A stretch of 64,000 bases of DNA from an uncultured Candidatus Rokubacteria bacterium. GTDB taxonomy: Bacteria; Methylomirabilota; Methylomirabilia; Rokubacteriales; DASRDR01. The notes below the pieces were generated by a model, which saw only the letters and a program-made list of their open reading frames with translations, was not told where the DNA came from and searched no databases. This document shows positions 19,189-49,055 of the stretch, in pieces; the first letter of the stretch is position 1, and every line of letters starts with the position of its first letter. The translations under genes were made by a program, and so were the position numbers. Location of the stretch: positions 77,178 to 141,177 of the forward strand of contig CAWEXD010000004.1 of assembly GCA_963812945.1 (NCBI GenBank), given 5' to 3'.

Positions 19189-19278
19189 CTACGAGATCTT
19201 CCGCATGGGCTGCCCGCAGCAGGTGCCTGCGCTCTCGGACACGTGCCCACATTTCTCACAGCGGTACTGATTTGCCAT
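19189..19278 (-). CDS. 29-aa Cys-rich peptide (CxxC...CC, TRASH-like metal-binding motif)
   Basis: MANQYRCEKCGHVSESAGTCCGQPMRKIS; ATG preceded by strong SD GAGGAGGTG; last gene of a four-gene small-protein operon. Confidence 0.4.
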   Translation of the reverse strand: MANQYRCEKCGHVSESAGTCCGQPMRKIS

Positions 19279-19295: not shown

Positions 19296-19640
19296 TCAGT
19301 TGACCTGGATCGCTGTCACGACCTTCTGACCGCCCTTGTTCTCGACGCTCGCCTTCACGATCGCGCCGGCCTTCAGGGTGGCCAGATCGACATTGACCGA
19401 GGCCGGAATCATCAACCGGGTCCCGTCCTCGAGGAGAACCGTCCGGCCAGCGGGATCGATGCTCTTGATCTTCCCGCTGACCTCCCCTTGAGCCGGGCTC
19501 TGCGCTGGCGCTGGCGTCTTCGTCGTCGCTGGCTTCGACGCCGGCGCTGGGGGCGGCCCGGTCTGCGCCCCGACGAGCGAGACGAACACCAGAAGGAACA
19601 CGAGCCACATCCCGATCGCCGCCAAGAGGCTCTCCTTCAT
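19296..19640 (-). CDS. DUF1344-like secreted protein
   Basis: signal peptide, Pro/Ala-rich linker, then GKIKSIDPAGRTVLLEDGTRL...VTAIQV DUF1344-type beta domain. Confidence 0.6.
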   Translation of the reverse strand: MKESLLAAIGMWLVFLLVFVSLVGAQTGPPPAPASKPATTKTPAPAQSPAQGEVSGKIKSIDPAGRTVLLEDGTRLMIPASVNVDLATLKAGAIVKASVENKGGQKVVTAIQVN

Positions 19641-19654
19641 GGCATTCCCCGTGG

Positions 19655-19825
19655 TCAGACGGCTGGCGGCAATCGCCGGGTCCGGGCCATGTGGAACACC
19701 AGGAGCACCACACCCACCAGGAAGAGAACCCAGGCAATCTGCGTGGCCACCTGAGCCACTCCATAGAGCCCGAGAAGCCCGGCCACCAGGCCCACGATCA
19801 GAAACGTGAGCGCCATCGACAGCAT
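19655..19825 (-). CDS. DUF1328-family small membrane protein
   Basis: 56 aa, two TM segments (MLSMALTFLIVGLVAGLLGLYGVAQVATQIAWVLFLVGVVLL); SD GGAGGAGGG 8 nt upstream. Confidence 0.55.
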   Translation of the reverse strand: MLSMALTFLIVGLVAGLLGLYGVAQVATQIAWVLFLVGVVLLVFHMARTRRLPPAV

Positions 19826-19864: not shown

Positions 19865-19939
19865 CTACACCACGCCCATGAGCCACAGGATGACGATCAG
19901 ACTGAGCGGCACTCCCAGAAGCCACATGATCAGCGGCAT
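19865..19939 (-). CDS. 24-aa hydrophobic peptide (paralog of 34234..34311)
   Basis: MPLIMWLLGVPLSLIVILWLMGVV; SD AAGGGGGATG; first gene downstream of a sigma-54 promoter. Confidence 0.4.
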   Translation of the reverse strand: MPLIMWLLGVPLSLIVILWLMGVV

Positions 19940-19998
19940 TGCTACATCCCCCTTCTGCGCGTCGTCGCCGGCCGGCTGCCGGCCTTACCTGGAAGTAG

Positions 19999-20014
19999 GG
20001 CAAGACGCGTGCCG
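19999..20014 (-). promoter_or_regulatory. sigma-54 promoter (-24/-12) CGGCAC-N5-TTGCC
   Basis: GG-N10-GC spacing exact; predicted TSS about 60 nt upstream of the 19939 ATG. Confidence 0.55.
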
Positions 20015-20089
20015 GCGGCGGGGGCCTCGTAAATCGGGCTGCTGGCCCGGAATGGCTTGGATTCCTTGGGTCCGATTGGACCGAAGCTC

Positions 20090-20101
20090 GACACGGTGAC
20101 G
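20090..20101. promoter_or_regulatory. UAS half-element GACACGGTGACG (second copy GACACCGCGTCG at 20109..20120)
   Basis: identical to the right arm of 38169..38200; centre 83 nt upstream (minus orientation) of -24 GG of the promoter at 19999..20014. Confidence 0.4.
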
Positions 20102-20140
20102 CGAGGGCGACACCGCGTCGGGAGAAGTGGCTTCATCGCG

Positions 20141-20788
20141 TCAGGCCGCCGGTCGAACGGCCCGGTCTTCCTCGAGCCGTGTCTCGACGCCGGACCAGTC
20201 GATGTTTCGGAAGAACGCCTCGATGTACTGGTCGCGCTCGGTGGCCTTGTAGTCGCGCATGAACGCGTGCTCCCAGACGTCCATGACCAAGAGCGGCTTG
20301 AACCCGGCCGGCACGCCGTCCTGGTGGAGCGTGATCCAGTGATTCGTGAGGCGGTCGCTCATCGGGTCCTGGAAGAGGATCACCCAGCCGACTCCTCGCA
20401 TCTCACCGATGGCCTGGAAGTCGGTGCGCCACCGGTCCACCGACCCGAAAGATCCGGCCAGGGCGGCCGCCAGCCCCGAGCCCGACGGAGGCTTGGGATC
20501 GGCGGCGGCCCGAAGGTTGCCGAAGTAGTACTCGTGCAGGATCATCCCGTTGTACTCGAAACCCAGGCGGCGCGTCGGCTCGGCAAACTCGGGACTCTTC
20601 CCGGATGCCTTGCCCTTCGCGAGCATCTCGGCCAGCTCCTCGTTGAGGGCGTTGACCTGCTTGACGTACCCCGCGTACAGGGTGAGATGCTCCGCGACTT
20701 GAGCGTCCGAGATCCCGTCCAGGCCTTTGAGTTCGAATTCCTGCTTCCGGTAGGCCTTCGGAGTCTTGGGAGCGGTCTTGGCTGTCAT
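20141..20788 (-). CDS. sod: Fe/Mn superoxide dismutase
   Basis: ATG preceded by GGAAGGAGG; Fe/Mn-SOD signature region DVWEHAF.RDY and conserved His/Asp ligand positions. Confidence 0.9.
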   Translation of the reverse strand: MTAKTAPKTPKAYRKQEFELKGLDGISDAQVAEHLTLYAGYVKQVNALNEELAEMLAKGKASGKSPEFAEPTRRLGFEYNGMILHEYYFGNLRAAADPKPPSGSGLAAALAGSFGSVDRWRTDFQAIGEMRGVGWVILFQDPMSDRLTNHWITLHQDGVPAGFKPLLVMDVWEHAFMRDYKATERDQYIEAFFRNIDWSGVETRLEEDRAVRPAA

Positions 20789-20900
20789 CGACGTCCTCCT
20801 TCCAGAACGATGAGTCGAGTCGGACGGGACAGGGCCCGGGGCGCCTGCCGGCGCGTCCGGGCCCTGCGAGGCCGCGGGTCGTTCCTCTCGATGCTGAGCG

Positions 20901-21599
20901 TCAGCCCTGAACCTTGAGGTTGTTGACCACGCGGCGCACACCCTCGACCTGCTGCGCAAGCTCGGTCGCACGCTGTCGTGTCTTGTCGCTGTCGACGGTG
21001 CCGTTCAGCTGCACGATGCCCTGCTTCGTGTCGACGTCGACCTTAAGCAGGGTGGCCGGCGACACCCCGGCGAGCCTCGTCTTCACCGCTGCGGTGATCG
21101 ACGCGTCGCTCCACGCCTTGCTGACTTCCTTGCCCCAGTCTCGGTCATTCGGATCCGGGTACTTGTCCGCCGTGAAGCTCGGTGACCGCTCGAGAGCCTC
21201 CTTCGTCACGTCGACGTGGACCGTCCGCTTCTCGCGGTCGAGAATCACCGCGTTCCAGGGCACGGCGAAGAGCTTGTCGCCGACGCCGAGGAACCCGCCG
21301 AACGACACCACGGCGTAGGCCACGTTCCCCTTGTAGTCGACAAGCAGATCCTCGATTTTCCCCGCGTCCTTGCCGGCCAGATCCTTGACGCCGCTCCCCA
21401 CCACCGAGCTGGCCCGGTAGAGACCCGTGTGCTCGGCGAAGCGTTTCGTGTTGGTGATCGGCTCGGCGCTCTTGGACACCTGCCCCGCGACAGACTTGGG
21501 CGCTGCGGGCTTGGATGCCGACTGGGCGCTCGCGTCCGTCATCCCCAGTGCGCCGCCAAGCGCCACCGCGGTGACGAAGGCGCAAACTCGGGTCTTCAT
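20901..21599 (-). CDS. PRC-barrel plus BON domain secreted protein
   Basis: signal peptide; PRC-barrel-like middle; C-terminal BON domain nearly identical in pattern to 36992..37297 (..ATL.KVDVDT..G.V.L.G.V....I.ARATELAQ.V.GVR.VVNNLKVQ). Confidence 0.7.
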   Translation of the reverse strand: MKTRVCAFVTAVALGGALGMTDASAQSASKPAAPKSVAGQVSKSAEPITNTKRFAEHTGLYRASSVVGSGVKDLAGKDAGKIEDLLVDYKGNVAYAVVSFGGFLGVGDKLFAVPWNAVILDREKRTVHVDVTKEALERSPSFTADKYPDPNDRDWGKEVSKAWSDASITAAVKTRLAGVSPATLLKVDVDTKQGIVQLNGTVDSDKTRQRATELAQQVEGVRRVVNNLKVQG

Positions 21600-21649
21600 G
21601 ATGCGTCGACCTCCCTCGGGTTTTCGTTGAGGAACCTGTCGACGAGACG

Positions 21650-21665
21650 AGCAATGACGATGCCA
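21650..21665 (-). promoter_or_regulatory. sigma-54 promoter TGGCAT-N5-TTGCT
   Basis: predicted TSS about 40 nt upstream of the PRC/BON gene ATG 21599. Confidence 0.6.
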
Positions 21666-21805
21666 GGGCCGGCGGGCGGGGACCCCGTGCGCGAAACGGC
21701 GCGCGAGAGGCGAGACGTGCGATCCGCAGAGGTGCCAGGCTGTCAGGGGCGCGACGTCGCGTCGCGAAGGCCGGCCCGATCGAGGCGCCCGATCGAGACG
21801 AAGGA

Positions 21806-22282
21806 TCAGGCCGAGGGCGCGATCTCCCGGGCTACTCGCTGCAGCAGCTCCATGAACGGCTCGATCCTGAGCGGCTTGACCAGGTGCGCGTCGAATCCCG
21901 TGTCGCCGGCCAGCGCGCGGTCCTCGACTTCGTGATATCCGGTCAGGGCGATCAGGAACATCGGGGCACCTGCCAATCCTTCCCGGATCCGGCGGGCGAC
22001 GGCGTAGCCGTCGAGGCCCGGCAACCCGATGTCGATCACCGCCACGGCCGGGCGGTGGGCCAGCGCGTGCGCGACACCCCCGTCGCCGTCGGCTGCCTCG
22101 CTGACCGCGCACCCCCACATCTCCAGCAGCATCCGGAGAGCCCCGCGCGCGTCGTTGTCATCCTCCACGACGAGGACACGTAGCCGCCCGGCAGCCGACT
22201 CCAAGGCGGCGGAAGCGACGGTGCGCGGATCCTGAGGTGTCAATTCGGACGTCACTCTACGGGGGGCTCCGGTGGAGGTCAA
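21806..22282 (-). CDS. single-domain response regulator (CheY-like receiver)
   Basis: RVLVVEDD...DIGLPGLDG...KP receiver motifs; start uncertain (TTG at 22282 or internal GTG). Confidence 0.6.
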   Translation of the reverse strand: MTSTGAPRRVTSELTPQDPRTVASAALESAAGRLRVLVVEDDNDARGALRMLLEMWGCAVSEAADGDGGVAHALAHRPAVAVIDIGLPGLDGYAVARRIREGLAGAPMFLIALTGYHEVEDRALAGDTGFDAHLVKPLRIEPFMELLQRVAREIAPSA

Positions 22283-22462
22283 GTCTGCGACGGTTCACCC
22301 CCCGCGTTCCCCCCACCCGCGCCAGGCTGACGCGGGGACGACACCGTGACGCGCCGGGCCCGGATGGCCGCCTCGGTTCGGCGGCGGGGCCTTCGCGTGT
22401 CCGCCAGGGTCCGCCGGGTCCACGTGAAGGTGCTCTCGGCCGGCGCCTGGTATGCCGGCCCC

Positions 22463-22478
22463 TGGTATGGAAGTTGCC
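22463..22478 (+). promoter_or_regulatory. sigma-54-like promoter TGGTAT-N5-TTGCC
   Basis: GG-N10-GC; predicted TSS about 22489, 42 nt before the TTG/GGAG start of treZ; three GGTATG repeats in 22448..22490. Confidence 0.4.
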
Positions 22479-22530
22479 CCCCCGGTATGCCGTGCCCAGG
22501 CTCAGTGGCTCAACTCCGGGCTGGAGACGC

Positions 22531-24372
22531 TTGCCCATCGGAGCGGAGGTCGCCCCGGAGGGTGGCGTCCACTTCCGGGTCTGGGCGCCGCACGCCGCGC
22601 GGGTCGAGGTCGATTTGGGCGACCAGCGCGTCGCCCTCGATGCGGAGCGCGGGGGGTACCATGCGGGTCTCGCCCCGGGGGCACAGGCGGGCTCGCGGTA
22701 CGCCTACCGGCTCGATGGGGGCCGAGGGTACCCCGACCCGGCATCCCGCTTTCAGCCCGAGGGCCCGCACGGGCCCTCGGAGGTGATCGATCCCGGTCGA
22801 TTCGCGTGGACCGATGACCGCTGGTCGGGCGTGTCGCGCGAGGGCCAGGTCCTGTACGAGATGCACGTCGGAACGTTCACCGCCGCCGGGACGTGGGAGG
22901 CGGCGGCCCGTGAGCTGCCGGAATTGGGGCGGGCGGGCATCACGGTCGTGGAGGTGATGCCCGTGGCCGACTTCGTGGGCGACTTCGGCTGGGGGTACGA
23001 CGGGGTCGATCTGTTCGCCCCCACGCGGCTCTACGGGCGCCCGGACGACTTCCGGGCCTTCGTCGACCGCGCCCACGCGCTCGGTCTTGGCGTCATCTTG
23101 GACGTCGTCTACAACCACCTCGGCCCGGACGGGAACTACCTTGGCCAGTTCGCTCCCGGCTACTTCAGCACCCGGCACCGGACGGACTGGGGCCAGGCGA
23201 TTAACTTCGACGGGGCTCGCTCGGGGCCGGTGCGGGAGCTCTTCGTCGCCAACGCCGGGTATTGGGTCGAGGAGTTCCACCTGGACGGGCTCCGGCTCGA
23301 TGCCACGCAGGACATCCACGACGACTCCCCCGAGCACGTCATCACCGCCATCGCGCGGCGCGCGCGCGAGCGGGCTGGCCGGCGGACGGTGTGGCTGGTG
23401 GCCGAGAACGAGCCGCAGGACACGAGGCTCGTGCGCTCCGTCGAGGCAGGCGGGTACGGTCTGGACGCCCTCTGGAACGACGACTTCCATCACAGCGCCA
23501 TGGTTGCCCTGACCGGCCGGGCCGAGGCGTACTACAGCGACTACGCCGGGACCCCGCAGGAGCTGATCTCGGCCGTCAAGCGCGGGTACCTCTACCAGGG
23601 CCAGCGCTACGCGTGGCAGGACGAGCCGCGAGGCACGCCGGCGTGGGACGTTCCGCCGGTGGCCTTCGTGAACTTCCTCCAGAACCACGACCAGGTGGCC
23701 AACTCGCTCGCCGGCCTGCGCGGTCATCAGCTGGCCAGCCCCGGGCGATACCGGGCCCTGACGGCCCTCCTCCTGCTGGCCCCCGCCACGCCCATGCTGT
23801 TCCAGGGCCAGGAGTTCGCCGCCTCGAGCCCCTTTCTCTACTTCGCCGACCTGCCGCCCGAGCTGGCGAAGCTGTCTCGGGCCGGACGGGCCGAGTTCCT
23901 CGCCCAGTTTCCAAGCCTCGCAGGGGCCGAGGCCCAGGCAGCCCTGGCCGACCCGGCCAGCCGCCTCACGTTCGAGCGGTCGAAGCTGGATCTGACCGAG
24001 CGCGCGCGCCACGCTGACGCCTATGCCCTGCACGTCGATCTGCTCCGCCTGCGGCGCGAAGACCCCGTCTTCCAGACGCAGGGAGCCGCCGGCGTGGACG
24101 GGGCCGTACTCGGGGCCGAGGCGCTCGCTCTCAGGTTCGTCGACCCCGACCCCGGTCCGCACGATCGGCTGCTCTGTCTCAACCTGGGACGCGACCTGAC
24201 GCTGCCGGCCGTCGCGGAGCCGCTGCTCGCGCCGCCCGAGGGCGCACGGTGGACCCTCCTCTGGTCCAGCGAGGCCGTCCGCTATGGCGGCAGCGGCACG
24301 CCCGAGCTCGACCCGGCCGCGGGCTGGTTCTTGCCCGGCCATGCCGCCCTCGTCTTCGGCGCCACGCGATGA
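22531..24372 (+). CDS. treZ: malto-oligosyltrehalose trehalohydrolase (GH13)
   Basis: N-terminus GVHFRVWAP..VEV pattern and GH13 catalytic regions; TTG at 22531 with GGAG 7 nt upstream, chosen because a sigma-54-like promoter predicts a transcription start near 22489; GTG at 22492 is the alternative. Confidence 0.75.
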   Translation: MPIGAEVAPEGGVHFRVWAPHAARVEVDLGDQRVALDAERGGYHAGLAPGAQAGSRYAYRLDGGRGYPDPASRFQPEGPHGPSEVIDPGRFAWTDDRWSGVSREGQVLYEMHVGTFTAAGTWEAAARELPELGRAGITVVEVMPVADFVGDFGWGYDGVDLFAPTRLYGRPDDFRAFVDRAHALGLGVILDVVYNHLGPDGNYLGQFAPGYFSTRHRTDWGQAINFDGARSGPVRELFVANAGYWVEEFHLDGLRLDATQDIHDDSPEHVITAIARRARERAGRRTVWLVAENEPQDTRLVRSVEAGGYGLDALWNDDFHHSAMVALTGRAEAYYSDYAGTPQELISAVKRGYLYQGQRYAWQDEPRGTPAWDVPPVAFVNFLQNHDQVANSLAGLRGHQLASPGRYRALTALLLLAPATPMLFQGQEFAASSPFLYFADLPPELAKLSRAGRAEFLAQFPSLAGAEAQAALADPASRLTFERSKLDLTERARHADAYALHVDLLRLRREDPVFQTQGAAGVDGAVLGAEALALRFVDPDPGPHDRLLCLNLGRDLTLPAVAEPLLAPPEGARWTLLWSSEAVRYGGSGTPELDPAAGWFLPGHAALVFGATR

Positions 24373-26456
24373 GCGATCCGATCCGCCGCATCGCCTGGCC
24401 CGGCCGCACCGCCCCCGAGGGGACCGGGCTCGGGACTCGGGAATGGCTCGTGACCAACGGGCTCGGCGGCTACGCTTCGGGCACCGTGTCCACCGTCATG
24501 ACTCGGCGCTATCACGGGCTCCTGATCGCGGCCCTGCCCGCCCCGCTCGGGCGGATGCTGATGCTGAGTCACCTGGACGAGCAGCTGTCCCTGCCCGACG
24601 GCACGGTCGCGGCCACGGCGACCGGCTGGGAGGTCAGCGGGGCCGGCAAGCCGATCGAGGTCGCGGATCTCGCCGAGTTCCGACTGGAGATGGGCCTTCC
24701 GGTGTGGCGCTACGAGCTGGGCGAGGTCGCCTTCGAGAAACGGCTCCTCCTCCCCTATCGCCAGAACACGGTTCACGTGAGCTACCGGCTGGTCGAGGGC
24801 TCGGAACCCATTCGGCTGCAGATCCGGCCGGCGGTCCACTTTCGGCCGCACGAGCAGCCCGTGAACGCCTCGCTGGCGGCGCCCTACGCGCTCACGGTCG
24901 TCGACGACCGGTACGAGCTGCAAGGAAGCCCGGGGCTGCCGCGGCTCCGACTTCGGATGCACAGCCCGGCCGCCACCTTTCACGTCGCCTGCGAGACGAT
25001 CCGGCAGGTCCTGTATTCCATGGAGCGCAGCCGCGGCTACGAGGCGACCGGCGATCTCTGGAGCCCCGGCTACTTCGTGGTCACCCTCGGGCCGGAGGGG
25101 CCCGCCACCCTGGTGGCGTCCACCGAGCCCTGGGAAGCCATGGACGCGCTCGATCCGGAGACCGCGCTGCGGGCCGAGCTGACCCGGCGGCGCCGCCTCC
25201 GGGCGGTGGCCCACCCGCACGCGCGCACGGGCACGGCGGCCGAGCTCGTCCTGGCCGCCGACCAGTTCGTCGTGGCGCCGGCCGGCCGGGTGGCGGACAC
25301 CGCAATCACTCGCGCCACGGGCGACGAGGCGCGCACGATCATCGCGGGCTACCACTGGTTCACGGACTGGGGGCGCGACACGATGATCGCCCTCGAGGGC
25401 CTCACCCTCGTGACGGGCCGTCACGTCGAGGCCGGCTACATCCTGCGCACGTTCGCGCTCTACGTGCGGGACGGCCTGATCCCGAACATGTTCCCCGAGG
25501 GCACGCGCGAAGGGCTCTACCACACGGCGGACGCCACGTTCTGGTACTTCCACGCGATCGATCGCTACCTCCGCGCGACCGGCGATCGCGAGACGCTCCG
25601 CCTGCTTCTTCCGACGCTGCTCGAGATCGTCGAGCGCCACGTGCGGGGCACCCGGTTCGGCATCGCCGTGGATCCGGCGGACGGCCTCCTGCGGCAGGGC
25701 GCGCCCGGCTATCAGCTCACGTGGATGGACGCCAAGGTCGAGGACTGGGTCGTGACCCCGCGGCGCGGGAAAGCGGTGGAGATCAACGCGCTCTGGTACA
25801 ACGCCCTCCGCCTCCTCGAGGGGTGGGTCCGCGAGGAACGCGGGATCGAGGCGTCGGCGGCCCTGGCCGAGCGGGCGGACCAGGTGCGCGCCGCCTTCAA
25901 CGCGCGCTTCTGGCATGCAGGGGGCGGCCATCTCTACGACGTGGTCGACGGCGAGGGCGGCGACGACGCCGCCTGCCGGCCCAACCAGCTCTTCGCGATC
26001 TCGCTGCGGCATCCGGTCCTGGACGAGGCGCGATGGACGTCGGTCATGACGGTGGTCCAGGAGCGCCTCCTCACGCCGGTGGGGCTTCGCACCCTCGCGC
26101 CGGACCATCCCGACTACAAGGCGACGTATGACGGTGATCTCCGGGCCCGCGACGCCGCCTACCATCAGGGCACGGTCTGGCCCTGGCTGATCGGCCCGTT
26201 CGTGGAGGCGTGGCTCCGTGTCCACCCCACGGACCGCGCGAGAACGCGAGCGCTTTTGGAGCGGTTCACGTCGCATCTCGACGAGGCCTGCGTGGGCAGC
26301 GTCAGCGAGATCTTCGACGCCGAGGTCCCCTTCACGCCCCGCGGGTGCATCTCCCAGGGCTGGAGCGTGGCCGAGGTGCTCCGCGCCCTCATCCTCACGG
26401 CCGAATCGGGGCCACCGGATCCGCCGGCGCCGCCCCGGGAGGGAGGACAGCCATGA
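24369..26456 (+). CDS. glycogen debranching enzyme, amylo-alpha-1,6-glucosidase type (GDE N-domain plus (alpha/alpha)6 catalytic domain)
   Basis: ATG overlaps treZ stop (ATGA); GYHWFTDWGRDT and other GDE_C signatures. Confidence 0.8.
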   Translation: MSDPIRRIAWPGRTAPEGTGLGTREWLVTNGLGGYASGTVSTVMTRRYHGLLIAALPAPLGRMLMLSHLDEQLSLPDGTVAATATGWEVSGAGKPIEVADLAEFRLEMGLPVWRYELGEVAFEKRLLLPYRQNTVHVSYRLVEGSEPIRLQIRPAVHFRPHEQPVNASLAAPYALTVVDDRYELQGSPGLPRLRLRMHSPAATFHVACETIRQVLYSMERSRGYEATGDLWSPGYFVVTLGPEGPATLVASTEPWEAMDALDPETALRAELTRRRRLRAVAHPHARTGTAAELVLAADQFVVAPAGRVADTAITRATGDEARTIIAGYHWFTDWGRDTMIALEGLTLVTGRHVEAGYILRTFALYVRDGLIPNMFPEGTREGLYHTADATFWYFHAIDRYLRATGDRETLRLLLPTLLEIVERHVRGTRFGIAVDPADGLLRQGAPGYQLTWMDAKVEDWVVTPRRGKAVEINALWYNALRLLEGWVREERGIEASAALAERADQVRAAFNARFWHAGGGHLYDVVDGEGGDDAACRPNQLFAISLRHPVLDEARWTSVMTVVQERLLTPVGLRTLAPDHPDYKATYDGDLRARDAAYHQGTVWPWLIGPFVEAWLRVHPTDRARTRALLERFTSHLDEACVGSVSEIFDAEVPFTPRGCISQGWSVAEVLRALILTAESGPPDPPAPPREGGQP

Positions 26457-26830
26457 CCCAGACGATCGCCCGCGTGTTCGGCATCGTGTTCCTGCTCGTC
26501 GGGCTCCTCGGCTTCGTCACGACCCCCTTCTCGATGGAGGGCGGGCTCCTCCTGGGTCTCTTCCCCGTCAACGTCCTGCACAACCTCGTGCACCTGATCT
26601 TCGGCGCGTGGGGCCTGCTCGCGGGCAGGACCTTCGCCGGCGCCACCGCGTACTGCCGGATCGCCGGGATCGCGTACATCGCGCTGGCCGTGGTCGGTTT
26701 CCTGACGCCGACGGGGTTCGGCCTCGTTCCCCTGGGCGGGCATGACGTCTGGCTCCACGCGATCCTCGGCGTCATCCTCACGGCCGGCGGGTTCCTCGAC
26801 CAAACCCGTCCCGTGCCGATCCGTCACTGA
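26453..26830 (+). CDS. DUF4383-family membrane protein
   Basis: ATG overlaps GDE stop; SD GGGAGGGAGG; 125 aa, four hydrophobic segments, NVLHNLVHL motif. Confidence 0.6.
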   Translation: MTQTIARVFGIVFLLVGLLGFVTTPFSMEGGLLLGLFPVNVLHNLVHLIFGAWGLLAGRTFAGATAYCRIAGIAYIALAVVGFLTPTGFGLVPLGGHDVWLHAILGVILTAGGFLDQTRPVPIRH

Positions 26831-26867
26831 GCCGGCCTCCGTGAGCGCCCGCTCGCCACAGGTGCCC

Positions 26868-28133
26868 ATGACCCATTCCCCTCGTGACGGCGCCCCCGAG
26901 CTCCCGGCGGCCCGGGCCAACGAGTCGAACGCGCGCCGGCCGATCCGGGCCGGACAAGGGACTGCCGGCCGCGACGCGCACGCGCGCTCGGTGGCGTGGC
27001 GGTATGGCTCGGCGGTCGCGTCGGTGGCGGCCTGCCTGGTCGTCTCGCGCCTCCTGGATTCTCTTACCGCCGACTGGGCAGCCCCGGTCCTCTTGTTCTT
27101 CGTGCCGGTGATGTTCAGCGCATGGCACGGTGGCCTTGGCCCGGGGCTCCTCGCGACCGGGTCCGCCGCCGGCCTCATCGCCTACGGCTTCGTGGCGGGC
27201 ACCGGGGCGCTGCGCATGCCGACTCTCGGCCAGATGACCGGGCTCGCGCTGTTCATCGCGGAGGGGTGCCTCGTCACGTACCTGGCCGCGCGCGCCTACC
27301 AGGCCACCGAGAGCCGCCGGCTGTACCAAGAGGCGCAGGAGGCCAACCGGCTGCGGGACGCCTTCCTGGACACGGTCTCGCACGAGCTCCGAGCGCCGCT
27401 GTCCACGATCATCGGTTGGACGCAGGTGCTGCGGAAGGCGGCCGCCGATCGGGAGACGACCGTCAAGGCTCTGGAGAGCATCGAGCGCAGCGTGCGCGTC
27501 CAGACGAAGCTCATCGACGATCTGCTCGATCTCTCCCGCATGCTCTCCGGACGCCTCGAGCTCGAGGTCCAGGCGGTCGAGCTGGTGCCCCTGATCACCG
27601 CCGTCGCCGAGACGGTCCGGACCGCTGCCGTGGCCAAGGCGATCCGGCTCGACATCTCCCTAGACCCCGACGCCGGGCCGATCTCGGGCGACCCAGCGCG
27701 CCTCCAGCAGATCGTCTCGACGCTCGTCTCGAATGCGGTCAGGGTCACGCCGGCGAGCGGCACCGTCCGGCTTCGTCTCCAGGGCCGGGGCCAGGCGGCC
27801 GAGATCGCGGTGAGCGACACGGGCCCCGGAACCGCGCCCGAGCTCCTTCCAGACCTCTTCGAGGTGTTCCGCCGGATCGACGGACCGTGGACCCGCCAGC
27901 GCGGAGATCTGGGGCTCGGCCTGGCGATCGCCCGCCACCTGACCGAGCTTCACGGCGGAACCATCCAGGTGGAGAGCCCCGGGGTCGGGTGGGGCGCCAC
28001 GTTCACGCTGCGCTTCCCGGTCGTGGTCCCCGGAGACGGTCCGGGCCGCCTCGCGCCCACGGGGCCGGACGAGAGCCGTGAGAGCACGGCCCGCCCGCTC
28101 CCCCGGGAGTCCCTCGGGCCGCCGACTTCCTGA
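26868..28133 (+). CDS. sensor histidine kinase with N-terminal membrane sensor domain (KdpD-type DUF4118-like)
   Basis: HisKA H-box SHELRAPL, N/G1/G2 HATPase boxes (DTGPG..G.GLGL). Confidence 0.8.
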   Translation: MTHSPRDGAPELPAARANESNARRPIRAGQGTAGRDAHARSVAWRYGSAVASVAACLVVSRLLDSLTADWAAPVLLFFVPVMFSAWHGGLGPGLLATGSAAGLIAYGFVAGTGALRMPTLGQMTGLALFIAEGCLVTYLAARAYQATESRRLYQEAQEANRLRDAFLDTVSHELRAPLSTIIGWTQVLRKAAADRETTVKALESIERSVRVQTKLIDDLLDLSRMLSGRLELEVQAVELVPLITAVAETVRTAAVAKAIRLDISLDPDAGPISGDPARLQQIVSTLVSNAVRVTPASGTVRLRLQGRGQAAEIAVSDTGPGTAPELLPDLFEVFRRIDGPWTRQRGDLGLGLAIARHLTELHGGTIQVESPGVGWGATFTLRFPVVVPGDGPGRLAPTGPDESRESTARPLPRESLGPPTS

Positions 28134-28296
28134 CGCACTTGAGGTCGGACGTGCTAGTGTCCGACATCGGGATGCCGGAAGCGGATGGCGACCGCCCGAT
28201 CCCGGCGTGTGCGGACCTGGGGCCCGACCGTCGTGGTCTGGTCTCGAGGGCCCACGTGGTGGCCTGCGTGACGGCGGTCGGCCGGCCGGGGTCAGC

Positions 28297-29589
<1,293 letters not shown>

Positions 29590-29597
29590 CCGGAAAC

Positions 29598-29644
29598 AGC
29601 CTCGCCGTCCGGCTCTTCAACCGAAGAGGCCGGACGGCGAGGCT
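29598..29644. terminator. 16-bp stem hairpin between convergent genes
   Basis: agcctcgccgtccggc / gccggacggcgaggct with 15-nt loop, between 29589 and 29665. Confidence 0.5.
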
Positions 29645-29664
29645 CCCCAATCCGCGGCAGGCGC

Positions 29665-30051
29665 TCAGATGCTCGTGCGCGACGTCGCGGGGACCGGCGG
29701 CGCCGGACTGACCGTCTCGGCGCGATCCTCGTCCTCGTCCGTGACGTCCGGATCCTGATCCCGGTCGAGCTCGGCTGCATCGTCGGGCGCCTCGTTGGTC
29801 GCGAGGATCTGCACCGCGACCTCGTTTCCCGACACCTGCGCGTCACGGAGCTCGAACCACTCGAAGCCCATGGCGGCCGCGCCGCGCACGGCCTGGTCGA
29901 TGGCCGCCTTCACCGCGGCCTTGACCGACTCCTCGGAGCGGTCCGCCAGAGGCGCCGTGGTTTCGATGAGCGCCGCGCCCGCGGCGGCCGAGGGCGGACC
30001 GGAGCAGACCAGCAGTGCAAGCGCGAGCATGGCGAGGAGCGTGCGCGTCAT
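29665..30051 (-). CDS. secreted hypothetical protein (128 aa)
   Basis: ATG at 30051, signal peptide MTRTLLAMLALALLVCSG, acidic C-terminal tail; sigma-54 promoter candidate 40 nt upstream. Confidence 0.5.
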   Translation of the reverse strand: MTRTLLAMLALALLVCSGPPSAAAGAALIETTAPLADRSEESVKAAVKAAIDQAVRGAAAMGFEWFELRDAQVSGNEVAVQILATNEAPDDAAELDRDQDPDVTDEDEDRAETVSPAPPVPATSRTSI

Positions 30052-30103
30052 GGTCGGTCCGCCTTTCCCTGCGAGCCATCGGTGCGTCATGCCGAGACAC
30101 GAG

Positions 30104-30119
30104 TGCGAGTGTCGTGCCA
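30104..30119 (-). promoter_or_regulatory. sigma-54-like promoter TGGCACG-N4-TCGCA
   Basis: perfect -24 box, one mismatch in -12 (GC kept); 40 nt upstream of the 30051 ATG. Confidence 0.45.
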
Positions 30120-30185
30120 GCCACTCACACGCGCACGGACGGGCATGCGCGTGAGAAAGGGGCCGAATCGACCAGCCGCGGCCCG

Positions 30186-31871
30186 TCACGCGCCCGGCGA
30201 CGCCTGCGGCTGTCGCCGGCGCGACAGGGTGTCGCGCTCCGGCTCACGCGGCGGCGGGGCCGCCGACTGGTAGCGAGCGAACACGTCGTAGAGCTGGATC
30301 GGGTGATCGATCTCGGCCGGGAGGGGCGCGTCCGACCGTGCCAGGACGAACGTGCGAAGCTCCTCGGGTGACGGGCCCGCATGGCAGCCGACCTCGTCGA
30401 TGTAGGACACGTGCCCCTCGGGTGCGTCGATGCCATAGACGACGAGGTCGCCGGCGCTCGGCATGGCCATCAGCGCGGTGAGGTCCCGCGTGACGCTCAG
30501 GCGGTCCTCTCGCTCCGCGAAGGGACCGCCCTCGAAGTCGGCCAGGCGATGAGACTGGCCGCGCCAGAAGCAGACGGGGCCGGCCGCCGCGCGCGCGAGA
30601 ACGACGCCGACACCGGCGCTCTTCGAGAGGGCCGCGGCGAGCCCGGGCCATCGGGCCTCGATGGCCTCCAGGAGCACGGGCTCGGGGGTGTCCACAAAGT
30701 ACACGAACGCGTTCGGTCCGGCCGAGACCACCCGGATCCCGTCCCGCTCGAACGACTCGCGGTCATCGAGGTACGGGTCGAACCCGAGCTCGTGCCTGAC
30801 GGCGTCGTCCGGCGGCGGCCCTTCCGTCGGAGCCTCGGCGGAGGCCGCCGCCGGGCGCCCGGCCGGGGAGCTTCCCGGAAGCAGATCGAAGAATGCGCGC
30901 TCGAACCGCTGCCCTCCAGCCATCACGGAATAGGGGATGCTCGACGCTTGCCCGTGGTCCGCGAGGACGTAGAGATCGTAGCGGTACTCGGGCACGCGCC
31001 GGAGGACGCGCCCGATCTGACGGATCGACCGGTCGATCCCGCGCAAGGCCGCGATCGCCTGGCGAGTCCGGGGGCCGGCGGTGTGAGCGGTCTCGTCGTA
31101 GTCCAGGTAGTTGACGTAGATCGCCGGCACCCCGTCGTAAGCGTCGCGGGCAACGGCCAGCGTGAACCACTCGCGTGTCCAGACCGAGATGGCGATTCGC
31201 TTCTTGGCCACCTTCCACGTCAGAGCCCGCTGGCTCGGGTGCCGGGCCATGCGGGCCAGGGCCCGGATGAGCTCCCGGCCGGTGAGCACGACACCTCTCG
31301 CCGCGACCCACGCGACCACCACGAACGCCGAGAGCGTCCGGACCACCCCGGGCGTCCGCGGTCGCGTGAGCCGGGCGAAGCTGAAGAGGTCGTGGATGGC
31401 GCCCCCGGTGAACACGCATCCGTAGACGCTGCCATCCCGCAGGATGCCCGCCCGATCCGCGGCTTGCTCCGCCTCCACGAATGCAGCGTGTCCCGCACGA
31501 GGAAAGTGGATGTCCGTGCGTCGCCGCTTGTCGTGGTAGTGGAACCCGGGAATGTCCGGCTGGACCCCGTACATGGCGGCCATCTGGAAGGCCGGGGTGG
31601 ACGTGGGAATGCCTACCGTCATGGGCGTCAGCCGGTATCCGCCGCGATCCAGGAGGCGCCGGACATGCGGCATCTCCCCGGAGGAGAGCGCCTGCTCGAA
31701 GACGGTGCGCGAGAGCCCGTCGATCTGGACGATCAGGAGACGCCGCCGCCCGGCCGCGGGCGGGACGCCAAGCCGGAATCGCCGGACGATCCGGTCGATC
31801 GCCCGCTGGGCGTGGAGAAACAGGTCGGCGACGGTCATCGGCGCTGGCCCGGCGGGCTGTTCATCGCTCAC
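30186..31871 (-). CDS. alkaline phosphatase superfamily protein (type I phosphodiesterase/nucleotide pyrophosphatase-like)
   Basis: LIVQIDGLS metal-site lead motif and later Asp/His clusters typical of the AlkP core; GTG start 8 nt below the PBP stop. Confidence 0.6.
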   Translation of the reverse strand: MSDEQPAGPAPMTVADLFLHAQRAIDRIVRRFRLGVPPAAGRRRLLIVQIDGLSRTVFEQALSSGEMPHVRRLLDRGGYRLTPMTVGIPTSTPAFQMAAMYGVQPDIPGFHYHDKRRRTDIHFPRAGHAAFVEAEQAADRAGILRDGSVYGCVFTGGAIHDLFSFARLTRPRTPGVVRTLSAFVVVAWVAARGVVLTGRELIRALARMARHPSQRALTWKVAKKRIAISVWTREWFTLAVARDAYDGVPAIYVNYLDYDETAHTAGPRTRQAIAALRGIDRSIRQIGRVLRRVPEYRYDLYVLADHGQASSIPYSVMAGGQRFERAFFDLLPGSSPAGRPAAASAEAPTEGPPPDDAVRHELGFDPYLDDRESFERDGIRVVSAGPNAFVYFVDTPEPVLLEAIEARWPGLAAALSKSAGVGVVLARAAAGPVCFWRGQSHRLADFEGGPFAEREDRLSVTRDLTALMAMPSAGDLVVYGIDAPEGHVSYIDEVGCHAGPSPEELRTFVLARSDAPLPAEIDHPIQLYDVFARYQSAAPPPREPERDTLSRRRQPQASPGA

Positions 31872-34209
31872 CCGGCGCCGCCGTCATCGGCGGCCGGTCG
31901 CCGGGGACCCAGATCGACGCGACGGGGTGCGCCACGGGGCCACAGGGCTCGGCAAGCTCGGTCGAGGGCAAGAAGGCGTCCGGGATCGAATTGCCGCAGA
32001 CGTGGCGGACGGCAACGGTCGGTGGCACGGTGAACTCGCCCGGCTCCTCGAGGAGCGCGGCCGCCCGCATGAAGTCGGCCCAGATCGGCAATGCTCCCTG
32101 GCCGCCCGACAGGCCGAGCGGTGCACCGTCGTCGAATCCGACCCAGACCACCGTCACCAGGCGAGGCGAGTAGCCGGCGAACCACGCATCGCGCGTGTCG
32201 TTCGTGGTACCGGTCTTCCCCGCGAGGGCGCCACCGAGACCGAGGGCCCGGACCGCGGCGCCCGTACCACGGTCCACGACCCCGCGCAGCAGGTGCGTGA
32301 CGACATACGCTTCCTCGGGCAGGAGACGGGGCACTCCGCGCGGGACCGGAGAGATCCCTTCGCGTCCTTCGACTGCGCGCACGGCGTGGGGTCCCACGAG
32401 CGCGCCCCCGTTCGCGAGCGTCGCGTACGCTGTGGCGAGCTCGAGTGGCGTCACTTCGAAGCTACCCAGGGCCAGGGCGGGCACCGGGCTGATGCGGCTC
32501 GTCAAGCCGACGTCGCGCGCCGTCCGGACCACATTGCCGAGGCCGACCGCCTGGGCGATCCGGACCGCCGCAACGTTGGACGACCGCTCGAGCGCCTGTC
32601 GCACGGTGATCAGTCCATCGAACCGATCCTCGAAGTTGCGGGGGGCCCATACCCCCTGCGGGGTCTCGAGCTCGACGGGCAGATCCTCGACCACTGACGC
32701 GGGTGTCACCACGGGCGATTGCCCGGCCACCCCGCGCCGGAGGGCGGCCAGGAAGACGAAGGGCTTGAAGGCAGACCCTGGCTGCCGGCGGGCGTGAGTC
32801 ACGCGGTTGAACGCGGAGAGCTCGTAGTCTCGACCTCCCACGAGGGCCAGGATCGCGCCCGTTACAGGGTCGAGCGCCACCACCGCGGCCTGGAGCCGCC
32901 CCCCGGACGGGGAGCGACGGAGGCCCCGGTGTGCGCTCTCCAGTCGGTCCAGCCCACGGGCCACGGCCACCTCCGCCGCCCGCTGGAGACCCGTATCGAG
33001 CGTCGTGTAGATCCGCGGACTCCCGGCCCCCAGGTCGGCGCCCGTCGCCCCGCGCACGTGGTCCAGGAAGTAGGGAGCTTGGGACGGCAGGGCCGTCCCC
33101 GCCCGCACGTGAACGCGCTCGGCGGCGGCCCCCGCGAGCGCCGCCCCGTCGATCATGCCGAGCTCGTGCATCCGGCGCAGGACCACGTCGCGCCGCCGCC
33201 GCGCGCGCTCCGGATGCTCCGCCGGCGAGTAGCGATTGGGCGCCCGGATCATGCCCGCCAGGAGCGCGCTCTCGGCGAGGGTGAGACGCCGCCCGTCTTT
33301 GCCCCAATAGCTCTGTGCCGCGGCCCCTACTCCGAGAATAGCGGCCCGGCCTCGCTGGCCGAGGTAGACGGTGTTGAGGTACGCCTCCAGGATCCGCTCC
33401 TTCGGATGGCGGCGCTCGAGCGCCAGCGCCAGGGCACCCTCCCGGACCTTCCGGATCCAGGTGCGCTCCGGGCCCAGGACCAGGTTTTTCACGAGCTGCT
33501 GCGTCAGCGTGCTGGCCCCCTGCGCGATCTCGCCGCGCGAGGTGTTCACGGCCAGGGCGCGGCCGATGGCCAGGAGATCGAGGCCTTCGTGATCGAAGAA
33601 TCGGTGGTCCTCCGCCGCGAGGACCGCTCCCGGAACGAAGTGCGACATCTCCGCGAGCGCCAGCGGTCGCCGTCGCTCGAATCCCGTCTCCCCGACTCCG
33701 ACGAGGAGCTCGGGCTCGAGCTCGGCGCCGGGCATGTCCGCGCCGGTGACGTCCGCCACCCCGACGATCCGCGAGCTCTGCAGCTCCAGGCGAACGCGCA
33801 TGGCGGGGCGGGCGACGTCCTCGCGAGCCCGGAGGTGGATCTCCCATCGCTCACGGGTCCGGCGGAACTCGCCGGGCTGCGCGGGGGCCGTGGAGACCTC
33901 CCGATAACGGAGCCGATCGAGACTCTCCCCGACGGCCCCGATCGCGACACCCGGCCGAAGACGCTGGCCGGCGGCGAACACCAAAGGTGTCTCCTGGACG
34001 GCGTCGAGGTCGAGGCGGGCGGCGGTCACCTCCGCCCACCCGGCCAGGGCCGTCATCGTCGCCACCACGCCGGCCAGGACCGAGACGGCCGCGACTCGAA
34101 CGGAGCGGGGCGCCCGGTGCCATGCGTCCCGTCCCGCCCCGCCGACTCGAGCGAGAGCGCGACGGGCGCTGTTCCAGCTTCCGCTCGGACGGGATCCGGG
34201 CCGCCTCAT
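31861..34209 (-). CDS. class A penicillin-binding protein (bifunctional glycosyltransferase/transpeptidase, PBP1A-type)
   Basis: N-terminal TM anchor, GT51 motifs EDHRFFDH, GASTLTQQ, RKVRE, then transpeptidase SxxK-type region. Confidence 0.85.
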   Translation of the reverse strand: MRRPGSRPSGSWNSARRALARVGGAGRDAWHRAPRSVRVAAVSVLAGVVATMTALAGWAEVTAARLDLDAVQETPLVFAAGQRLRPGVAIGAVGESLDRLRYREVSTAPAQPGEFRRTRERWEIHLRAREDVARPAMRVRLELQSSRIVGVADVTGADMPGAELEPELLVGVGETGFERRRPLALAEMSHFVPGAVLAAEDHRFFDHEGLDLLAIGRALAVNTSRGEIAQGASTLTQQLVKNLVLGPERTWIRKVREGALALALERRHPKERILEAYLNTVYLGQRGRAAILGVGAAAQSYWGKDGRRLTLAESALLAGMIRAPNRYSPAEHPERARRRRDVVLRRMHELGMIDGAALAGAAAERVHVRAGTALPSQAPYFLDHVRGATGADLGAGSPRIYTTLDTGLQRAAEVAVARGLDRLESAHRGLRRSPSGGRLQAAVVALDPVTGAILALVGGRDYELSAFNRVTHARRQPGSAFKPFVFLAALRRGVAGQSPVVTPASVVEDLPVELETPQGVWAPRNFEDRFDGLITVRQALERSSNVAAVRIAQAVGLGNVVRTARDVGLTSRISPVPALALGSFEVTPLELATAYATLANGGALVGPHAVRAVEGREGISPVPRGVPRLLPEEAYVVTHLLRGVVDRGTGAAVRALGLGGALAGKTGTTNDTRDAWFAGYSPRLVTVVWVGFDDGAPLGLSGGQGALPIWADFMRAAALLEEPGEFTVPPTVAVRHVCGNSIPDAFLPSTELAEPCGPVAHPVASIWVPGDRPPMTAAPGER

Positions 34210-34233
34210 CGACGTCGCGTGGCCTGTGCCGGC

Positions 34234-34311
34234 CTACACGACGCCGAACAGCCAGAGAATGACAATCAGAAACACCGGGACGCCGAGCATGTAGAGAATC
34301 ACGGGGCGCAT
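34234..34311 (-). CDS. 25-aa hydrophobic peptide (paralog of 19865..19939)
   Basis: MRPVILYMLGVPVFLIVILWLFGVV; SD AAGGAGGTG; sigma-54 promoter about 32 nt upstream; only 24 nt before the PBP1A start. Confidence 0.45.
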   Translation of the reverse strand: MRPVILYMLGVPVFLIVILWLFGVV

Positions 34312-34352
34312 GGCGTACACCTCCTTCTCGCGTGTCGCACTGCTGTGGTGAA

Positions 34353-34369
34353 GGCAATCTCTATGCCGG
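34353..34369 (-). promoter_or_regulatory. sigma-54 promoter CGGCAT-N5-TTGCC
   Basis: predicted TSS about 32 nt upstream of the 34311 ATG (tiny peptide, then PBP1A). Confidence 0.5.
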
Positions 34370-34446
34370 CCACAGCCGGTTGGCCGAAGCGTGTCGGCGA
34401 TCGATGTAGCGATCGATGGAGAAGGAACCGGGCACGCCATGCGCGC

Positions 34447-34472
34447 CACGGTGTCGCGAGCGCGACACCACG
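34447..34472. promoter_or_regulatory. palindromic UAS-like element CACGGTGTCGCGAGCGCGACACCACG
   Basis: contains GTGTC/GACAC dyad words; centre about 93 nt (82 plus one helical turn) from -24 GG of the promoter at 34353..34369. Confidence 0.35.
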
Positions 34473-34687
34473 ACGCTCGTGGCTCCTTGCGCTCCGGGCG
34501 CGCGCTCCGTGGACAGTTCCCGCGGGGAGGCTCCCGCGATCGAATCAAACCCACGGCGTGACGGCACGGCTTTCGCACCTCGCAGAGCGCGATGGTGGCT
34601 CTCCCAGGCGACGCCGAGAAGAAGGTTGACGCTCCCGAAAGGCGTCCGGCCTCCCCCGACCGCCACGGCCAATCACCGAACCAGCCG

Positions 34688-36451: not shown

Positions 36452-36620
36452 GCTCCAGGGCCCCCCGGAGCGCGCCGTCACCGTGTCGTGTCAACGACAC
36501 CGTGGCCAGGTCGTGTGCGGTCGAACACCGTGAAGACGTCGAGACTCGCCGGCGACGACTGTCGCTCATGTGCAGGCAGGACCGACCGTTTCCCTTCGAT
36601 TGCGATCCCGACGCCTCAGC

Positions 36621-36706: not shown

Positions 36707-36943
36707 ATGAACGCGGACATCATGGACGGGAAGTGGAAGCAGATGCGCGGCCAGATGAGGGAGTGGTGGGGCAAGCTCACCGACGACGACTTCGACGTCA
36801 TCGCGGGCAAGCGCGACAAGCTCATCGGCAAGCTCCAGGAGAAGTACGGCTGGGCCAAGCACGATGCGGAGAACGAAGTGTCGCGCCGCTTCCGTGAGCT
36901 CGACGCGACCATCCAGGAGCCGTCCGGGACGTACACGCCCTAG
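36707..36943 (+). CDS. csbD: CsbD-family stress protein
   Basis: ATG with AGGAGG 6 nt upstream; GKWKQMRGQ.REWWGKLTDDD...GK.D.L.GK.QEKYGW CsbD signature. Confidence 0.75.
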   Translation: MNADIMDGKWKQMRGQMREWWGKLTDDDFDVIAGKRDKLIGKLQEKYGWAKHDAENEVSRRFRELDATIQEPSGTYTP

Positions 36944-38168: not shown

Positions 38169-38200
38169 CGTCACCCTGTCGTGACTCCGACACGGTGACG
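38169..38200. promoter_or_regulatory. dyad UAS-like element CGTCACCCTGTC-N8-GACACGGTGACG (candidate activator site)
   Basis: 12-bp inverted repeat with 10/12 arm complementarity, preceded by palindrome GTGACGTCAC; centre is 81-82 nt from the -24 GG of both divergent sigma-54 promoters (38090..38105 and 38266..38281). Confidence 0.5.
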
Positions 38201-49025: not shown

Positions 49026-49055
49026 GCCCTCGAATACAGCAAGGACCGTGCCAGC

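Follow-up and report, generated by a model that had tools for sequence, protein, structure and literature searches.

Two described families of small bacterial membrane proteins provide the closest comparisons for pep1 and pep2, the two micropeptide genes described here from a 64,000-nucleotide stretch of an uncultured Candidatus Rokubacteria genome (GenBank assembly GCA_963812945.1, contig CAWEXD010000004.1, positions 77,178 to 141,177; 70.8% G+C), which as a whole is called the window below. The DUF1328 family includes Escherichia coli YtjA, and ytjA is a stationary-phase gene of the RpoS type. DUF5670 (Pfam PF18919) and the related NCBIfam entry lmo0937_fam_TM (NF033488) comprise very hydrophobic proteins of about 49 residues with two transmembrane (TM) segments. 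With respect to promoters, NtrC-family sigma-54 systems combine a box with GG at -24 and GC at -12, paired palindromic sites further upstream and an activator of REC-AAA+-HTH_8 architecture with an adjacent kinase, and they usually serve nitrogen, transport and flagellar genes. In Listeria, lmo0937 shows a log2 change of about -3 (about an eight-fold drop) in a sigB mutant (PMC7690807); it is sigma-B dependent and therefore in the general stress regulon, which is the kind of regulation that we infer for the peptides described here. EcfG promoters carry the published motif GGAAC-N17-20-GTT, at listed distances to the coding sequence of mostly about 25-55 nt, and the EcfG regulon also holds PRC-barrel and small hypothetical proteins (PMC6599016).

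Compared with these systems, pep1 and pep2 probably belong to a translated, unnamed and widespread family of stress-induced membrane micropeptides of 24-27 residues, with both translation and role predicted from sequence. The family shows the sequence hallmarks of a general stress regulon, and the apparent type of promoter differs by lineage: EcfG-type motifs are found in one, and a sigma-54-type motif together with palindromes in another.

Two paralogous micropeptide genes

Both genes lie on the minus strand, pep1 at 19865-19939 (MPLIMWLLGVPLSLIVILWLMGVV, 24 residues) and pep2 at 34234-34311 (MRPVILYMLGVPVFLIVILWLFGVV, 25 residues), with the stop codon included in each case. An earlier reading of the window from its letters alone (the sequence-only reading) had proposed paralogous hydrophobic peptides with strong Shine-Dalgarno sequences here, without stating the strand. 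The open reading frames (ORFs) are indeed present, the plus-strand translations at the same coordinates are unrelated sequence, and ribosome-binding sites can be read from the sequence 7 nt before the pep1 ATG (AAGGGGGA, 19947-19954, minus strand) and 6 nt before the pep2 ATG (AAGGAGGTG, 34318-34326, minus strand). The two products agree at 17 of 24 aligned residues, a likeness far beyond chance, and a profile built from the wider family finds exactly two copies in the window, pep1 (E = 7e-9) and pep2 (E = 2e-9). We have high confidence that these are real genes, the same ORF being found in more than 100 genomes.

The family signature is [IL]LW-h-h-G-[VI]-P-x-x-h-h-h-h-L-W-h-h-G-h-h (h, hydrophobic), followed by 0-2 residues. 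When it is extended to M-x(1-4)-[IL]LW-h-h-G-[VI]-P-x-x-h(4)-L-W-h-h-G-h-h-x(0-2)-stop with a ribosome-binding site, pep1 fits it at every position; pep2 fits all signature positions except Trp6, for which it has tyrosine (its residue 7, 34291-34293), as does its orthologue at locus L117, with the second tryptophan kept. The peptides are almost wholly hydrophobic, with about 22 consecutive hydrophobic residues, a central G-x-P and two LW-x-x-G motifs, and no family member contains an acidic residue. Such a stretch could form one kinked TM helix but lacks the length for a helical hairpin spanning the membrane twice; a single proline-kinked TM helix is the most likely form, and the predicted membrane location can be held with good confidence.

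A widespread family of short open reading frames

The core shared by the two peptides, which the sequence-only reading had marked for a search in other genomes, was sought with a degenerate DNA pattern for G-h-P-x-x-h5-W-h-x-G-h-h scanned over one genome per species (596 Gb), in which only a handful of matches would be expected by chance according to our own rough estimate, which was not computed with any tool. The scan returned at least 120 loci (designated by L numbers), and at least 107 of these, among the matches listed, hold the same short ORF; in a few further loci the ORF is cut by the locus end or has its start outside the search window. The layout is uniform, with an ATG 7-10 codons before G-x-P, a stop 0-2 codons after the core, a total of 24-27 residues, and in nearly all members a GGAG/AGGA-type ribosome-binding site 5-10 nt before the ATG. 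Among the matches listed, a scope that applies to all counts of members and neighbours below, 55 members are in Alphaproteobacteria (Methylobacterium, Aureimonas, Roseomonas, Azospirillum, Nitrobacter, Cereibacter and others), 34 in Nitrospirota and 10 in Rokubacteria (nine labelled so, plus L091, labelled 'uncultured bacterium'). The other nine comprise two Binatia, two 'Deltaproteobacteria' metagenome-assembled genomes (MAGs), and one each from Chloroflexota, Acidobacteriota, Waddliaceae, Polaromonas and Obscuribacteraceae. We note that it is rare for a family of 24-27 residues with four invariant positions to span Alphaproteobacteria, Nitrospirota, Rokubacteria, Chloroflexota and Chlamydiota.

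In the family alignment G9, P11, W19 and G22 are invariant, which says nothing on conservation because these residues were fixed by the scan pattern; L5, W6 and L18 are more than 90% conserved, and neither W6 nor the identities of L5 and L18 were demanded by it. Two subtypes, 'MP...' and 'M-x-[KR]-G...', often occur together in one genome (L044, L079 and L088 come from one MAG, and L068 and L118 lie on one contig), and the presence of two paralogues in the window is therefore typical. Variation is greater at the third codon position than at the first and second. The pooled ratio of non-synonymous to synonymous differences per site (pN/pS) among the pep1 orthologues is 0.32, and pep2 and its L117 orthologue differ with a pS of 0.55 and a pN of 0.07; with pN well below pS in the relatives, these substitution patterns indicate purifying selection on the peptide.

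Gene callers miss the pep1 and pep2 ORFs, and exact look-ups in a collection of 15 billion proteins found neither window peptide, as might be expected if the frames had arisen by chance in GC-rich intergenic sequence and the conservation were that of a non-coding element. However, more than 100 genomes, of GC content from low to 70%, share the start, stop, frame and ribosome-binding site, the third codon position is the most variable, gene callers report a 30-residue form in Nitrospira on hundreds of contigs, and Rfam gives no match in the window. The recurrence of the same ORF in more than 100 genomes, together with a coding-type pattern of substitution, effectively refutes this explanation and leaves it a vanishingly small probability. 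The Nitrospira form belongs to an 'MGKG...' subtype (L001, L021, L028, L038, L071, L092, L099, L105 and L107) in which an alternative upstream ATG extends the product to 30 residues, and it is for this reason that only these copies get annotated.

Most family forms are absent from the same protein collection, and those present are named 'hypothetical protein'; the family is nearly missing from annotation and has no Pfam or NCBIfam model. A profile search of the PDB, membrane complexes included, yielded no structural relative, and a literature search found the peptide sequence strings in no paper. Small hydrophobic proteins of stress regulons are already known as a kind, and it is the family of 24-27 residues itself that appears undescribed. 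A DNA search located an Azospirillum copy on chromid-size plasmids, in records without annotation, whereas tblastn of one family peptide against plasmids gave no match, probably due to low-complexity masking. When viral contigs were scanned with the peptide alignment there were 52 pattern matches, none of which was confirmed.

Comparison with DUF5670 and lmo0937

The sequence-only reading had noted a loose resemblance to lmo0937-type micropeptides, and only part of this likeness holds up. Neither window peptide matches PF18919 or NF033488 even at E <= 10, and when 100 distinct members were compared with Pfam and NCBIfam none gave a significant match; 15 and 10 sub-threshold matches were to PF18919 and NF033488, respectively, the best having E values of 0.094 for DUF5670 and 0.061 for lmo0937_fam_TM. 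DUF5670 is also found in Rokubacteria, and the alignment used for comparison was seeded from a real member in L146. Comparison of this alignment with the peptide family by hhalign gives a probability of 60.6% and a pairwise E of 8e-5 over 13 columns, all in the first TM segment, pairing SLIVILWLMGVV with VILLILWLLGMVS.

The shared element is thus a 13-residue motif, h-h-h-h-L-W-h-h-G-h-h, in the first TM segment of small and very hydrophobic membrane proteins, and the match suggests homology, although short hydrophobic matches are prone to arise by chance. Membership of the family fails on score, length and architecture. DUF5670 proteins have two TM segments, whereas the peptides are half that size and form one continuous hydrophobic stretch; the second half of DUF5670, with its conserved GGFIHILLVIA...RxIQGRR, is missing from the peptides, which in turn have a duplicated LW..G around an invariant G-x-P that DUF5670 lacks.

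Promoter motifs differ by lineage

Upstream of the alphaproteobacterial copies, GGAAC-N16-18-GTT is found within 150 nt in 32 of 55 cases, compared with none of 34 in Nitrospirota and none of 11 in Rokubacteria. It lies 27-78 nt before the ATG, and the background expectation is 0.013 per 150 nt. In sequence and in its distance from the coding sequence it matches the EcfG general-stress promoter motif, and we found no published regulon list that names the peptide. Since the family occurs behind EcfG motifs in culturable and tractable Methylobacterium, Azospirillum, Cereibacter and Nitrobacter, a role in stress is directly testable there. A sigma-54 box matching at least 8 of the 11 positions of the consensus (TGGCAC-N5-TTGC) within 150 nt upstream has a different distribution, with 10 of 11 in Rokubacteria, 6 of 55 in Alphaproteobacteria and 4 of 34 in Nitrospirota, such that the Rokubacteria copies differ from EcfG regulon genes in having a sigma-54 box and an enhancer-like palindrome in place of the GGAAC motif. 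Control of the peptides by sigma-54 or EcfG is predicted with good confidence. In several Nitrospira (L015, L074, L077, L086 and L093), the 'MP...' subtype is preceded at about 60-110 nt by a conserved inverted repeat, CACATTTC...GGAAATGTCCGCTCTA, which may be a regulatory site in that phylum.

A promoter module with tandem palindromes in Rokubacteria

As the sequence-only reading had proposed, each peptide gene stands first behind a sigma-54-type promoter. The pep1 box (CGGCACgcgtcTTGCC, 19999-20014, minus strand) matches the consensus at 9 of 11 positions and lies 59 nt before the ATG; the pep2 box (CGGCATagagaTTGCC, 34353-34368, minus strand) matches at 8 of 11 and stands 41 nt before its ATG, and the pep2 orthologue of L117 has a box, GGGCACagagaTTGCC, 72 nt before the ATG. 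An alignment of the region upstream of pep1 in five Rokubacteria (the window, L040, L041, L044 and L118) contains just two conserved blocks, the box, within which GGCACGC..CTTGCCC is invariant while the flanking spacer is unalignable, and, farther upstream, a palindrome, CGACAC-N-GTGTCG.

This palindrome recurs in tandem, the starts of the two copies being exactly 19 bp apart. Seven such pairs occur in the window compared with 0.1 expected (first-order Markov simulation, 200 runs, maximum 2), and all seven have a sigma-54-like box 53-113 nt away. One pair, at 20089 and 20108 (CGACACgGTGaCG and CGACACcGcGTCG; 20089-20120), lies 74 nt from the pep1 box as a presumed enhancer and is conserved in L040, L041, L044 and L118; another, at 34444 and 34463 (CGCCACgGTGTCG and CGACACcACGaCG; 34444-34475), is upstream of pep2 at 75 nt from its box. 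The pair at 36476 and 36495 (36476-36507) precedes a CsbD gene (36707-36940, plus strand), and that at 38169 and 38188 (38169-38200) has two divergent boxes, one for a DUF883-like gene (38324-38698, plus strand) and one for a gene encoding a hydrophilic protein of 128 residues (37627-38010, minus strand); the label 'DUF883-like' is from a reading of the C-terminal sequence and homology to the collected loci, Pfam giving no DUF883 match. A gene for a 78-residue protein follows the pair at 45078 and 45097 (45078-45109), and the remaining two pairs are at 52863 and 52882 (52863-52894) and at 59613 and 59632 (59613-59644).

Among L001-L121, palindrome pairs are present only in Rokubacteria-type loci, L091 included, and always with one upstream of the peptide, whichever the subtype. 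The gene order of L117 is that of the window (pep2, an AI-2E transporter gene, CsbD, the divergent pair and the 78-residue gene), and a palindrome pair precedes pep2, CsbD, the divergent pair and the 78-residue gene there. The architecture of promoter plus enhancer is therefore conserved, and suggests that transcription would be sigma-54 dependent. With the same module before CsbD, DUF883-like and other small-protein genes in both the window and L117, the region is probably a sigma-54 stress gene island.

A candidate regulator is encoded within this island. The NtrC-type activator gene (49056-50420, minus strand) specifies REC, a Sigma54_activat AAA+ domain with GAFTGA, and HTH_8, and directly upstream of it is a gene for a sensor histidine kinase with HAMP, HisKA and HATPase domains (50417-51898, minus strand). 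We note that kinase and activator genes form an operon within 48597-51898 (minus strand), and that a perfect sigma-54 box (11 of 11 positions, 49038-49053), located right after the activator stop, precedes a gene for a single-domain response regulator (48597-49016). The box, the paired palindromes at 53-113 nt, one pair of which (38169-38200) is common to divergent promoters, and the activator with its adjacent kinase are all as in NtrC-family systems. The difference lies in the genes served, which here are CsbD, DUF883-like, DUF1328 and micropeptide genes. We know of no activator to which the palindrome CGACAC-N-GTGTCG can be assigned. A literature search found no paper joining Rokubacteria with sigma-54, and one for sigma-54 with CsbD likewise gave nothing on this family; the arrangement of a sigma-54 box and tandem palindrome before general-stress-type genes in Rokubacteria appears to be undescribed.

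A further sigma-54-like box, CGGCACggcttTCGCA (34562-34577, plus strand), faces away from pep2 toward a gene for a fusion of AI-2E transporter and B12-binding domains (34592-36451). It is 86 nt from the pep2 palindromes and 15 nt from the annotated ATG, and the two boxes may constitute a divergent promoter pair like that at 38169-38200.

The pep1 operon and stress-gene neighbourhoods

pep1 leads four genes on one strand, an operon that ends against a convergent enoyl-CoA hydratase gene. The second gene (19655-19825, minus strand) begins 39 nt downstream of pep1, has a GGAGG site of its own and encodes a DUF1328 (YtjA-like) membrane protein of 56 residues (PF07043, E = 1.8e-10; NF010229), for which an exact look-up returned two short Logan contigs. 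This small inner-membrane protein is encoded beside pep1 in four other Rokubacteria also, but it has two TM segments, is unrelated to the peptides in sequence, and belongs to a family that is already curated. The third gene (19296-19640, minus strand) encodes a secreted CusF/DUF1344-like protein of 114 residues (Pfam PF11604 and PF07076), matched in L041 over most of its length and in L040 and L044 only across the N-terminal signal-peptide region. The fourth and last is an ORF for a rubredoxin-like Cys4 zinc ribbon of 29 residues (19189-19278, minus strand), with weak Desulfoferrodoxin_N and rubredoxin-like matches; it is 72-76% identical in L040, L041, L044 and L118, and is another conserved micro-ORF under the usual size for gene calling. 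Upstream of pep1, on the side opposite to DUF1328, are a BON/PRC-barrel gene and a superoxide dismutase (SOD) gene. This order is complete in L040 and L041, all but the CusF-like gene is present in L118, and L044 has no BON/PRC match.

Neighbours across the collected loci were identified by clustering of ORFs together with Pfam checks, the choice of a 'first downstream ORF' being too noisy in GC-rich genomes. BON is found at about 17 loci, CsbD or DUF883 at about 10, DUF1328 at 6-9 and SOD at 6, and YtxH is also among the neighbours across phyla. These families are of the kind of small protein that is under RpoS in E. coli and under sigma-B in Firmicutes. The Nitrospira 'MGKG...' peptide has a DUF3015 lipoprotein gene before it and a gene for a secreted beta/gamma-crystallin-like protein of 128 residues after it, and in Alphaproteobacteria many copies are isolated, flanked by an ABC-transporter ATPase gene and pepA.

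Many conserved peptides of fewer than 30 residues with a single TM helix are subunits or assembly factors, and by this general knowledge the family might supply a small accessory component of a specific membrane complex, as do CydX, KdpF and AcrZ; a few members also give weak sub-threshold matches to the CydX/YbgT model. These matches have E values of 0.3 or worse, however, no partner gene is conserved beside the family across lineages, and the search of solved structures, in which membrane complexes were included, produced no relative, so that we regard this role as distinctly unlikely.

Type I toxins such as TisB offer a further comparison, the peptides then being stress-induced agents that damage or depolarise the membrane and so slow growth or promote dormancy. 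A length of 24-27 residues, extreme hydrophobicity without any acidic residue, stress-type promoter motifs and the common occurrence of several paralogues per genome, as in the MAG with L044, L079 and L088 and on the contig with L068 and L118, would all fit that class. Type I toxins are narrowly distributed, though, unlike a sequence conserved over at least eight or nine lineages and invariant at four residues. Strong canonical ribosome-binding sites and, in Rokubacteria, a position at the head of operons of ordinary stress proteins also speak against this class. Rfam finds no antisense RNA in the window, a weak argument given that Rfam would not hold a new one. A toxin is in our judgement very improbable.

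pep2 and the PBP1A question

pep2 is followed by a gene for a class A penicillin-binding protein (PBP) of the PBP1A type (31861-34209, minus strand; Pfam Transgly, UB2H and Transpeptidase) and this by a phosphodiesterase gene of the alkaline-phosphatase superfamily (30186-31871, minus strand; PF01663), which overlaps the PBP stop by 11 nt. The sequence-only reading had placed the end of the peptide 24 nt before the PBP gene, had seen no obvious terminator, and had suggested co-transcription of PBP1A and the phosphatase gene behind it. The spacing is correct, and ATG 34209 is the sole in-frame PBP1A start before the membrane anchor and has no ribosome-binding site of its own. As to a terminator, there is no hairpin with a T-run between 33900 and 34700, nor a sigma-70-like promoter, but a very stable stem-loop fills the whole spacer. 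This is a GC-rich hairpin of 16 bp (34209-34247, minus strand) that extends from the last four pep2 codons and the stop to the A of the PBP1A AUG, with a folding energy of -36.5 kcal/mol (z = -5.4; none of 200 shuffles folds as well).

Co-transcription is favoured by the 24-nt gap, the missing ribosome-binding site, the lack of a nearby sigma-70-like promoter or T-run terminator, the overlap of the phosphodiesterase gene with the PBP stop and the gene order of L117, in which PBP1A likewise follows pep2 and its first in-frame ATGs come 11-20 nt past the end of the peptide ORF. It is disfavoured by the hairpin, and by the finding that no family peptide lies within 3 kb of any of 80 metagenome PBP1A homologues (39-55% identity), which is a weak test because those loci are not syntenic and have neither the AI-2E nor the phosphodiesterase gene as a neighbour. 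No match to the PBP1A product was returned by an exact look-up. The operon is plausible and lineage-specific, seen in one related genome (L117), and is not established.

It is possible, though we doubt it, that pep2 acts mainly in cis as a translated leader ORF coupling synthesis of PBP1A (and of the phosphodiesterase) to the sigma-54 promoter. A ribosome ending at the pep2 stop would open the hairpin in which the PBP1A AUG is sequestered, and re-initiation would follow. The pairing between the last four pep2 codons and the stretch reaching to the A of the AUG is a classic layout for translational coupling, and the lone start codon 24 nt past the pep2 stop, the lack of a sigma-70-like promoter or T-run terminator, the order conserved in L117 and the overlap of the phosphodiesterase gene with the PBP stop are all consistent with it. 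The hairpin is not conserved in the L117 spacer, however (z = +0.57), and might just as well serve as a terminator that lacks a T-run or as a processing or stabilising site, and the PBP1A transcript could also be leaderless; the 80 non-syntenic homologues count weakly against coupling as well. Moreover, the peptide is conserved across phyla where no PBP follows, and coding for the peptide itself is therefore the primary constraint. A leader peptide of the attenuation type was also considered and was rejected on the grounds that the amino acid sequence is conserved across phyla, the downstream genes differ or are absent, and pN is well below pS.

Predicted role and significance

Our preferred reading remains that of a stress-induced membrane micropeptide family, drawn from the long hydrophobic stretch, the stress-type promoter motifs of two unrelated regulatory systems and the stress genes found nearby. 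In Rokubacteria, activation of the NtrC-type two-component system would lead to transcription of the peptide genes, the link to the activator at 49056-50420 being probable only. The peptides would then be inserted into the cytoplasmic membrane where, alongside further small membrane proteins of the stress response such as the DUF1328 product of the same operon, they would protect the membrane or tune a membrane protein. Confidence in this biochemical role, whether protective or tuning, is low.

Several observations weigh against this interpretation. Function is extrapolated from neighbours and promoters, the neighbours vary by lineage, and many of the alphaproteobacterial copies are solitary beside housekeeping genes. 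The Nitrospirota copies have no GGAAC motif (0 of 34) and seldom a sigma-54 box (4 of 34). No RpoN-box motif, as would mark rpoN, is present in the 64-kb window, and that the palindromes are served by the activator at 49056-50420 is a guess. pep2 and its L117 orthologue have tyrosine in the first LW motif at a position where tryptophan is otherwise more than 90% conserved. Finally, both pN/pS and the impression that the peptide is always present are biased because the loci were collected via the peptide pattern.

The observation and the promoter assignment of the sequence-only reading have thus been sustained and extended, while its lmo0937 kinship is reduced to likeness in a motif and its PBP1A operon is undemonstrated; new here are the span of the family over many phyla and the recognition of the window as a probable sigma-54 stress gene island. 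The window provides a concrete and testable candidate regulon of sigma-54 box, tandem palindrome and NtrC-type activator, and its module precedes genes that elsewhere are placed under RpoS, sigma-B or EcfG, which suggests a different wiring of the stress response. In its boldest form, which we consider unlikely, the peptide would be a near-universal component of general stress responses missed because of its size, its control would have been rewired between phyla, with EcfG in Alphaproteobacteria and a sigma-54 two-component activator in Rokubacteria, and in the lineage of the window one paralogue would gate PBP1A by hairpin coupling. If this were true, sigma-54 would run a whole general-stress-like regulon in Rokubacteria, and the hairpin-dependent coupling at pep2 would tie cell-wall synthesis to a stress signal.

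Additional sigma-54-like boxes in the window

Boxes without a clear palindrome pair precede a BON/PRC-barrel gene, a gene for a secreted protein of 128 residues, a WXXGXW-repeat gene and the single-domain response regulator gene. That for the secreted protein (29668-30051, no Pfam match) is at 30104-30119 (minus strand), right after the phosphodiesterase gene, and is preceded by one near-perfect palindrome, CGACAGGGTGTCG (30222-30234). The WXXGXW-repeat gene (52192-52509, plus strand) is lipoprotein-like and lies behind a sigma-54-like box at 52050-52065. A homologue of its product, 72% identical, is encoded in L068 (4860-5204), where the gene starts 3 nt after a paralogue of the peptide family, and the two families may be linked.

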